NCBI RefSeq assembly: GCF_003790525.1
Contig: NZ_CP033635.1
Direction: 5' to 3' (one strand)
Source: Escherichia coli
GTDB taxonomy: Bacteria > Pseudomonadota > Gammaproteobacteria > Enterobacterales > Enterobacteriaceae
Length of the DNA stretch: 64,000 nucleotides
Part shown: positions 2,006 through 2,023 of the stretch, one piece after another
How positions within the stretch are numbered: the first letter of the stretch is position 1
Layout: every line of letters starts with the position of its first letter
Made by a program: the position numbers and the translations under genes
Notes under the pieces: generated by a model
What the model was told of the DNA's origin: nothing
The model's input: only the letters and a program-made list of their open reading frames with translations
Databases searched by the model: none

Positions 2006-2023
2006 TTCTTACAGGTGTAGGAT
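2006..2023. promoter_or_regulatory. EvgA-box-like inverted repeat TTCTTACA-GG-TGTAGGAT upstream of ydeP
   Basis: 17/18 match to my recollection of the EvgA consensus TTCPyTACA-N2-TGTAPuGAA, about 250 bp upstream of the ydeP start in an AT-rich intergenic region. Confidence 0.35.

Follow-up and report, generated by a model that had tools for sequence, protein, structure and literature searches.

In the stretch of DNA analyzed here (64,000 nucleotides of Escherichia coli contig NZ_CP033635.1, hereafter the window) the 18-bp element located at 2006-2023 is very probably the binding site of a phosphorylated EvgA dimer that activates ydeP. EvgA belongs to the NarL/FixJ type of response regulators and acts in the EvgS/EvgA phosphorelay, which senses acid. 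Judged by its sequence, the element is the EvgA box of ydeP that is already known, in one of its three common alleles. According to the proposed mechanism, EvgS, activated in K-12 by mild acid, would phosphorylate EvgA, and the EvgA-P dimer would bind two inverted half-sites with their centre roughly 74.5 bp upstream of the ydeP start. The bound regulator would then activate a weak promoter of the sigma-70 type, whose -10 is extended (TGnTAATTT) and whose -35 is poor. It would probably do so by recruiting RNA polymerase while bound farther upstream, always on the same helical face, and both the relief of H-NS silencing and an additional contact with the conserved TCTTA near -40 may help in this process. 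The binding of EvgA-P and the activation are predictions for the strain of the window taken from the K-12 literature, and we infer the exact start site, the assignment of the -10 and the recruitment of the polymerase. The original prediction, which regarded the repeat as the probable activator site of ydeP, is supported by the orthology with K-12, the matrix score, the literature and the spacing between box and promoter.

An inverted repeat shared with the EvgA targets of K-12

On the + strand the window reads TTCTTACAGGTGTAGGAT at 2006-2023, as originally reported. The consensus used for the EvgA box was TTCYTACA-NN-TGTARGAA, which we take to be the recognition sequence of EvgA and which was checked on K-12 sequence. 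Compared with TTCYTACANNTGTARGAA, the window box has a single mismatch, located at the last base (T for A), and agrees at 15 of the 16 specified positions; the count of 17/18 given in the original prediction describes this same match. A consensus scan returned 2006-2023 as the sole match in the 64 kb of the window, even when up to three mismatches were allowed. By chance, 0.01 matches per window are expected at one mismatch or less (one out of 100 dinucleotide-preserving shuffles contained any) and 0.61 matches per window at three mismatches or less, thus the significance of the box hinges on its near-perfect match. As a literal palindrome the repeat is imperfect, with complementarity at 6 of the 8 arm positions, each arm conforming to the Y/R-degenerate consensus. 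Only short exact seeds are common to the two arms, and for this reason the EvgA box was not listed by the inverted-repeat finder.

The motif was examined in about 50 kb of K-12 sequence around genes reported as EvgA-activated. Seven sites were found at two mismatches or less, six of which are placed in the upstream regions of EvgA-activated genes (Table 1). The seventh (TTCTTACGCATGAAAGAA, two mismatches) is located inside the mdtE coding sequence (5887-5904 of locus L005) and could be either a chance match or an internal site relevant to mdtF. The upstream region of K-12 gadE showed no match to the consensus at four mismatches or less, evidencing that this consensus does not cover every reported EvgA target. 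The five K-12 sites other than that of ydeP were used to construct a symmetric weight matrix with a maximum of 28.0 bits, which assigned 23.6 bits to the window box and 20.8 bits to the K-12 ydeP box; the next best position in the window scored 11.1 bits and the best of 200 shuffled windows reached 21.7 bits.

Masuda and Church are said to have described an 18-bp inverted repeat in 2003 (Mol Microbiol 48:699), and EvgA footprints were reportedly obtained by Itou and colleagues in 2009 (Biosci Biotechnol Biochem 73:870). A full-text literature search, with the primary footprint papers outside its reach, did not retrieve a printed EvgA consensus; on motif logic, the window element probably corresponds to the published protected region. 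Inverted repeats upstream of yfdX and yfdW/frc are bound by EvgA (PMC3720670), and it was reported that all the directly regulated genes carry an EvgA binding site (PMC4283999). The dependence of ydeP on EvgA, which the original prediction took as known, agrees with the description of this gene as a direct EvgA target (PMC7174508; PMC11210196).

Table 1. Features of the ydeP upstream region in the window and EvgA boxes of K-12
Feature	Position	Strand	Sequence	Basis or remark
ydeP coding sequence, N-terminal 585 codons	1..1757	-		Runs off the window start; annotation of (near-)identical genomes
ydeP 5' leader, AT-rich, about 183 nt	1758..1939	-		28-31% GC; two predicted hairpins
ydeP transcription start, putative	1940	-		K-12 -178 from ATG, mapped through alignment
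Extended -10, putative	1948..1956	-	TG-T-TAATTT	safA has TG-T-TATATT at the same +50 to +58 offset
Half-site-like element	1976..1980	-	TCTTA	26-30 nt after box, -40 to -36; invariant in 7 strains
EvgA box, 18-bp imperfect inverted repeat	2006..2023	.	TTCTTACA-GG-TGTAGGAT (2006-2013, 2014-2015 and 2016-2023)	Sequence, sole consensus match, matrix score, K-12 orthology
Promoter-proximal half-site	2006..2013	-	TGTAAGAA in ydeP orientation	Perfect consensus match; invariant in 7 aligned Escherichia sequences
Distal half-site	2016..2023	-	ATCCTACA in ydeP orientation	One mismatch, outermost base
Terminator-like hairpin after ydeQ, T-rich tail	2045..2065	-		Terminator scan; just upstream of box
ydeQ, last gene of fimbrial operon	2096-3010	-
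K-12 box upstream of ydeP			TTCTTACAGGTGTAGGCT
K-12 box upstream of safA			TTCTTACAGCTGTAGGCA
K-12 box, emrK/evgA intergenic			TTCTTACGCCTGTAGGAT
K-12 box upstream of frc			TTCTTACAACTGTAAGAA
K-12 box upstream of yfdX			GTCTTACAATTGTAGGAA
K-12 box upstream of yegR			TTCCTACATAAGTAGGAA

Promoter geometry and genetic context of ydeP

The location of the site upstream of ydeP was confirmed. The box is contained in the 338-bp ydeP-ydeQ intergenic region (1758-2095), 249-266 nt upstream of the ydeP start codon, whose ATG is at 1757 on the minus strand. Six EvgA-target promoters were anchored on the promoter-proximal box and then aligned. A -10-like hexamer starts at +53/54 after the box in all six promoters, this being the sole offset that reaches 6/6, and a complete set at any offset was obtained in 1 of 2000 shuffles. 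Additionally, TCYNA is present at +26 after the box in five of the six promoters, and emrK has TCCTC at this place (4 of 5 positions); five out of six at any offset was reached in 0 of 2000 shuffles. Since safA and ydeP resemble each other over about 60 nt following the box, in the manner of paralogous promoters, and extended similarity links frc with yfdX, the six promoters amount to fewer than six independent cases.

The 5' leader of K-12 ydeP was defined as -178 to +10 from the start codon (PMC11210196). The position -178 is read here as the start site because other leaders in that study begin at known start sites; the assignment thus derives from a probe boundary and not from a stated mapping. 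When the 5-nt insertion carried by the window leader relative to K-12 is allowed for, the putative start lies 66 nt after the box, which would cover -83 to -66 and be centred at -74.5. In K-12 the leader end at -178 falls 8 nt after the putative -10. TG and TAATTT are invariant in seven strains and the base between them varies, as expected of an extended -10; TGnTAATTT is the invariant candidate and is consistent with the K-12 leader end. The -35 region of this promoter is poor. Two other candidates were rejected as the main promoter, TTAACG-16-TATATT (1992-1965, from a sigma-70 scan), in which TATATT changes to TTTATT in the divergent Escherichia strain described below, and TTGAAA-16-CACTAT, in which CACTAT changes to CCCTAT in APEC IMT5155; both of them misfit the leader end at -178.

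There is a small chance that TCYNA at -40 to -36, adjacent to the poor -35 on its upstream side, serves as the docking site of one more protomer of the NarL family, which could be RcsB or a second EvgA. If this were true, it would explain the need of RcsB for ydeP induction under a constitutively active EvgS. The fixed geometry between box and promoter, together with the TCYNA near -40, constitutes only mildly new material that may already be described; these features provide small leads on how EvgA, and RcsB, activate transcription.

The promoter and leader of ydeP have 28-32% GC, and the leader has a somewhat better predicted fold than shuffled controls (z-score of -2.36). An Rfam scan of 1650-2200 returned no match, and the K-12 ydeP leader is not bound by CsrA (PMC11210196). 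A perfect 9-bp inverted repeat, 1996-2004 (TGCGCGGAT) and 2045-2053 (ATCCGCGCA), brackets the box and leaves a 40-nt loop; the distal arm of this repeat is shared in part with the terminator-like hairpin of ydeQ (2065-2045, minus strand), and in the divergent strain the pairing of the repeat is kept by means of a G-U-compatible change. The ydeQ stop codon is at 2096-2098 on the minus strand. At 2096-8459 and 9694-14538 of the window, the lineage was seen to have a complete ydeQRS-usher-chaperone-fimA-like fimbrial operon with an usher of 883 aa; in K-12 only a truncated ydeT is present. The collinear genome has no hipAB in its annotation, in which the features that follow include two pseudogenes, one of a truncated helix-turn-helix regulator and the other of an ECSE_1600-family autotransporter.

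Conservation of the site, regulators and rival readings

The window box aligns column for column and free of gaps with the K-12 ydeP box and core promoter, in a promoter region that is about 97% identical between both strains. Seventeen of the 18 bases of the box are identical, and the sole difference is at the 17th base, which is A in the window and C in K-12. The window allele is thus nearer to the consensus, with one mismatch vs two in K-12, the latter being found in its distal half-site (AGCCTACA). Between box and promoter there are two substitutions (TTAACG in the window vs TTGAAG in K-12).

A 61-nt segment around the box was found in 5,322 of 5,426 complete E. coli genomes. Allele counts, based on allele-specific 32-mers in the same 5,426 genomes, showed that the window allele occurs in 1,771 of them, the K-12 allele in 1,757 and an allele with AG instead of GG in the spacer (O157:H7, APEC IMT5155) in 1,383. 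Together these three alleles account for 4,911 of the 5,426 genomes; the differences among them are restricted to the spacer or one outer distal-arm position. Across seven aligned Escherichia sequences the proximal half-site is invariant, also in a divergent strain (L007) and in a strain with an IS2-disrupted box, and the distal core CTAC is invariant as well. The variation affects the 2-nt spacer and one outer distal position. The divergent strain has an additional change, A>G at the innermost distal base, a variant that is also present in the emrK/evgA site. The sequence upstream of the box is rearranged in this strain; the box and the core promoter persist. The disrupted box belongs to E. 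coli PSS-15 (NZ_AP027709.1; locus L057, about 1536-1548), a natural mutant in which IS2 is inserted in the distal half-site so that ATC is replaced by the IS end CCA, with the proximal half-site and the promoter intact.

The segment 1700-2150 of the window is 100% identical to that of SMS-3-5 and about 96% identical to those of most other E. coli strains, and over its first 25 kb the window shows 100% identity to several genomes of the SMS-3-5 lineage. SMS-3-5 itself equals the window over 1-25000 except for an IS3 between ydeQ and ydeR, which is absent from the window.

In the cross-species footprinting, which was performed through YdeP homologs, the sole informative locus was a divergent one from Escherichia. 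The sequence upstream of the ydeP homologs of Edwardsiella hoshinae and Yersinia rohdei (86% and 69% identity to the E. coli protein, respectively) is unrelated and contains no box; hence, the EvgA wiring of ydeP appears to be specific to Escherichia. The YdeP proteins of E. hoshinae NBRC 105699 and Y. rohdei were the only Enterobacterales homologs outside Escherichia that the scan detected. In E. hoshinae, the 86% identity of YdeP, far above that of Y. rohdei, combined with an unrelated upstream sequence suggests that the gene was transferred horizontally without its regulatory region. A YdeP that is 100% identical to that of the window is encoded in the 13-kb contig JARKOR010000108.1, assigned to a ‘Candidatus Nanosynbacter sp.’ MAG, which also carries ydeP and safA EvgA boxes of K-12 type; this contig is almost certainly an E. 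coli contamination of the Nanosynbacter bin.

The evgAS genes are located outside the window, and the regulator was therefore checked in SMS-3-5, the closest genome examined for evgAS. Both genes are intact in this strain. EvgA is 100% identical to the K-12 protein and EvgS is full length (locus L060, 25195-28788), with differences from K-12 EvgS at 38 of 1,197 residues, 21 of which precede residue 500, in the periplasmic sensor part. SMS-3-5 has EvgA boxes at safA, emrK/evgA, frc and yfdX. Natural polymorphism in EvgS leaves some strains unresponsive to low pH with a regulon that is still functional (Roggiani et al., PMC5706723). As EvgS is polymorphic, with pH-blind variants known in nature and 38 differing residues here, an intact EvgA box does not establish acid inducibility; what the site points to, by sequence comparison, is conserved cis-wiring and not a conserved pH response. 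The suggestion that the acid-resistance wiring is conserved consequently holds for the cis-site, for EvgA (as checked in SMS-3-5) and for the safA-ydeO box, and may not extend to the sensing of the signal. Both the cis-element and the core promoter that would place ydeP under EvgS/EvgA control are preserved in the strain, a finding with little import beyond annotation.

Other regulators may participate. The motif TNRGA-N4-TCYNA, which we take from the literature to be the RcsB box, was found at one mismatch or less on neither strand of 1758-2095. In a passage of PMC7174508 that cites Johnson et al., the loss of RcsB is stated to abolish the acid induction of ydeP even with a constitutively active EvgS, and competitive gel shifts showed preferential binding of H-NS to the fragment with the ydeP promoter (PMC2984483). 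These observations suggest that the binding of EvgA alone may not suffice for ydeP.

The preference of H-NS for this fragment, the low GC content of promoter and leader, and the poor -35 region agree with a reading in which EvgA binds the box but acts mainly as an anti-silencer that displaces or remodels H-NS, without a stereospecific contact with the polymerase. We grant this reading a limited chance, considering that the distance from the box to the -10 is constant within 1 nt in six EvgA-dependent promoters, as expected of a face-of-helix contact with the polymerase and not required for anti-silencing; besides, both modes of action are not mutually exclusive. It is improbable that the box is used, alone or along with EvgA, by another NarL/FixJ regulator. 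RcsB would be the main candidate, based on its reported need for the acid induction of ydeP in the passage cited above and on the presence in the EvgA half-sites of TCTTA/TAAGA, which resemble RcsB half-sites. However, the arrangement of an RcsB box at one mismatch or less is missing from the whole ydeP upstream region, the half-sites in the box are oppositely oriented with a 6-nt separation, and the same 18-mer is specific to promoters of the EvgA regulon.

It could be argued that the sequence is a 3'-terminal part of the ydeQ fimbrial operon and, within an RNA or DNA hairpin formed by the 9-bp inverted repeat, serves termination and not the control of ydeP, given that this repeat brackets the box, that a terminator-like hairpin is close to it and that the bracket is maintained through the G-U-compatible change in the divergent strain. 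This is very improbable, as the box has the whole terminator-like hairpin with its T-tail upstream of it and does not occupy the centre of the 40-nt loop, and the recurrence of the 18-mer at other EvgA targets would be left unexplained. There is next to no chance that the box is a fortuitous or neutral sequence kept by the overall conservation of the intergenic region in a young species, and this reading is effectively refuted already. Although an identity of 95-96% across most E. coli makes the conservation of the 18-mer weak evidence on its own, only about 0.01 such matches are expected per window, the motif recurs with identical spacing at five other EvgA targets, polymorphism avoids the cores of the half-sites, and the most divergent Escherichia sequence, in spite of its rearranged upstream flank, has kept both box and core promoter. 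Activation of ydeP by EvgA-P bound at the box remains the preferred reading.

Comparison with known systems

The closest counterpart of the window element is the K-12 ydeP EvgA box, which shares with it the gene, the intergenic region, the aligned position, the TCTTA and TGnTAATTT elements and the distance to the putative start site; they differ in matrix score (23.6 bits in the window vs 20.8 bits in K-12) and in the 5 additional nucleotides of the window leader. The boxes of K-12 safA-ydeO, emrKY/evgAS, frc (yfdW), yfdX and yegR have the same 8-2-8 inverted repeat with zero to two mismatches, the same distance to a -10-like hexamer and TCYNA at +26. Differences among these targets include the two boxes of yfdX, which are 38 bp apart, and the emrK/evgA box, which serves divergent promoters. 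ydeP and frc, unlike the other EvgA targets, have much longer leaders, with the centre of the box at about 250-260 nt from the ATG.

The resemblance to the RcsB box involves the pentamers TAAGA/TCTTA and the genetic requirement of RcsB for ydeP induction; the RcsB box differs in the opposite relative orientation of the half-sites, in the spacing and in having no match at one mismatch or less in the ydeP upstream region.

Among regulators of the same family, BvgA sites at Bordetella fha/ptx and the ‘7-2-7’ sites of NarL consist of inverted heptad-like half-sites with a 2-bp gap at a weak promoter, and BvgA promoters combine a primary site with arrays of secondary sites reaching -35. On general grounds, the window element is comparable with these systems in that a dimer of a response regulator of this family would be positioned upstream of a weak promoter. 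The sequence of the half-sites is different and, instead of an array, the window presents one lone half-site-like element (TCTTA) downstream of the box.
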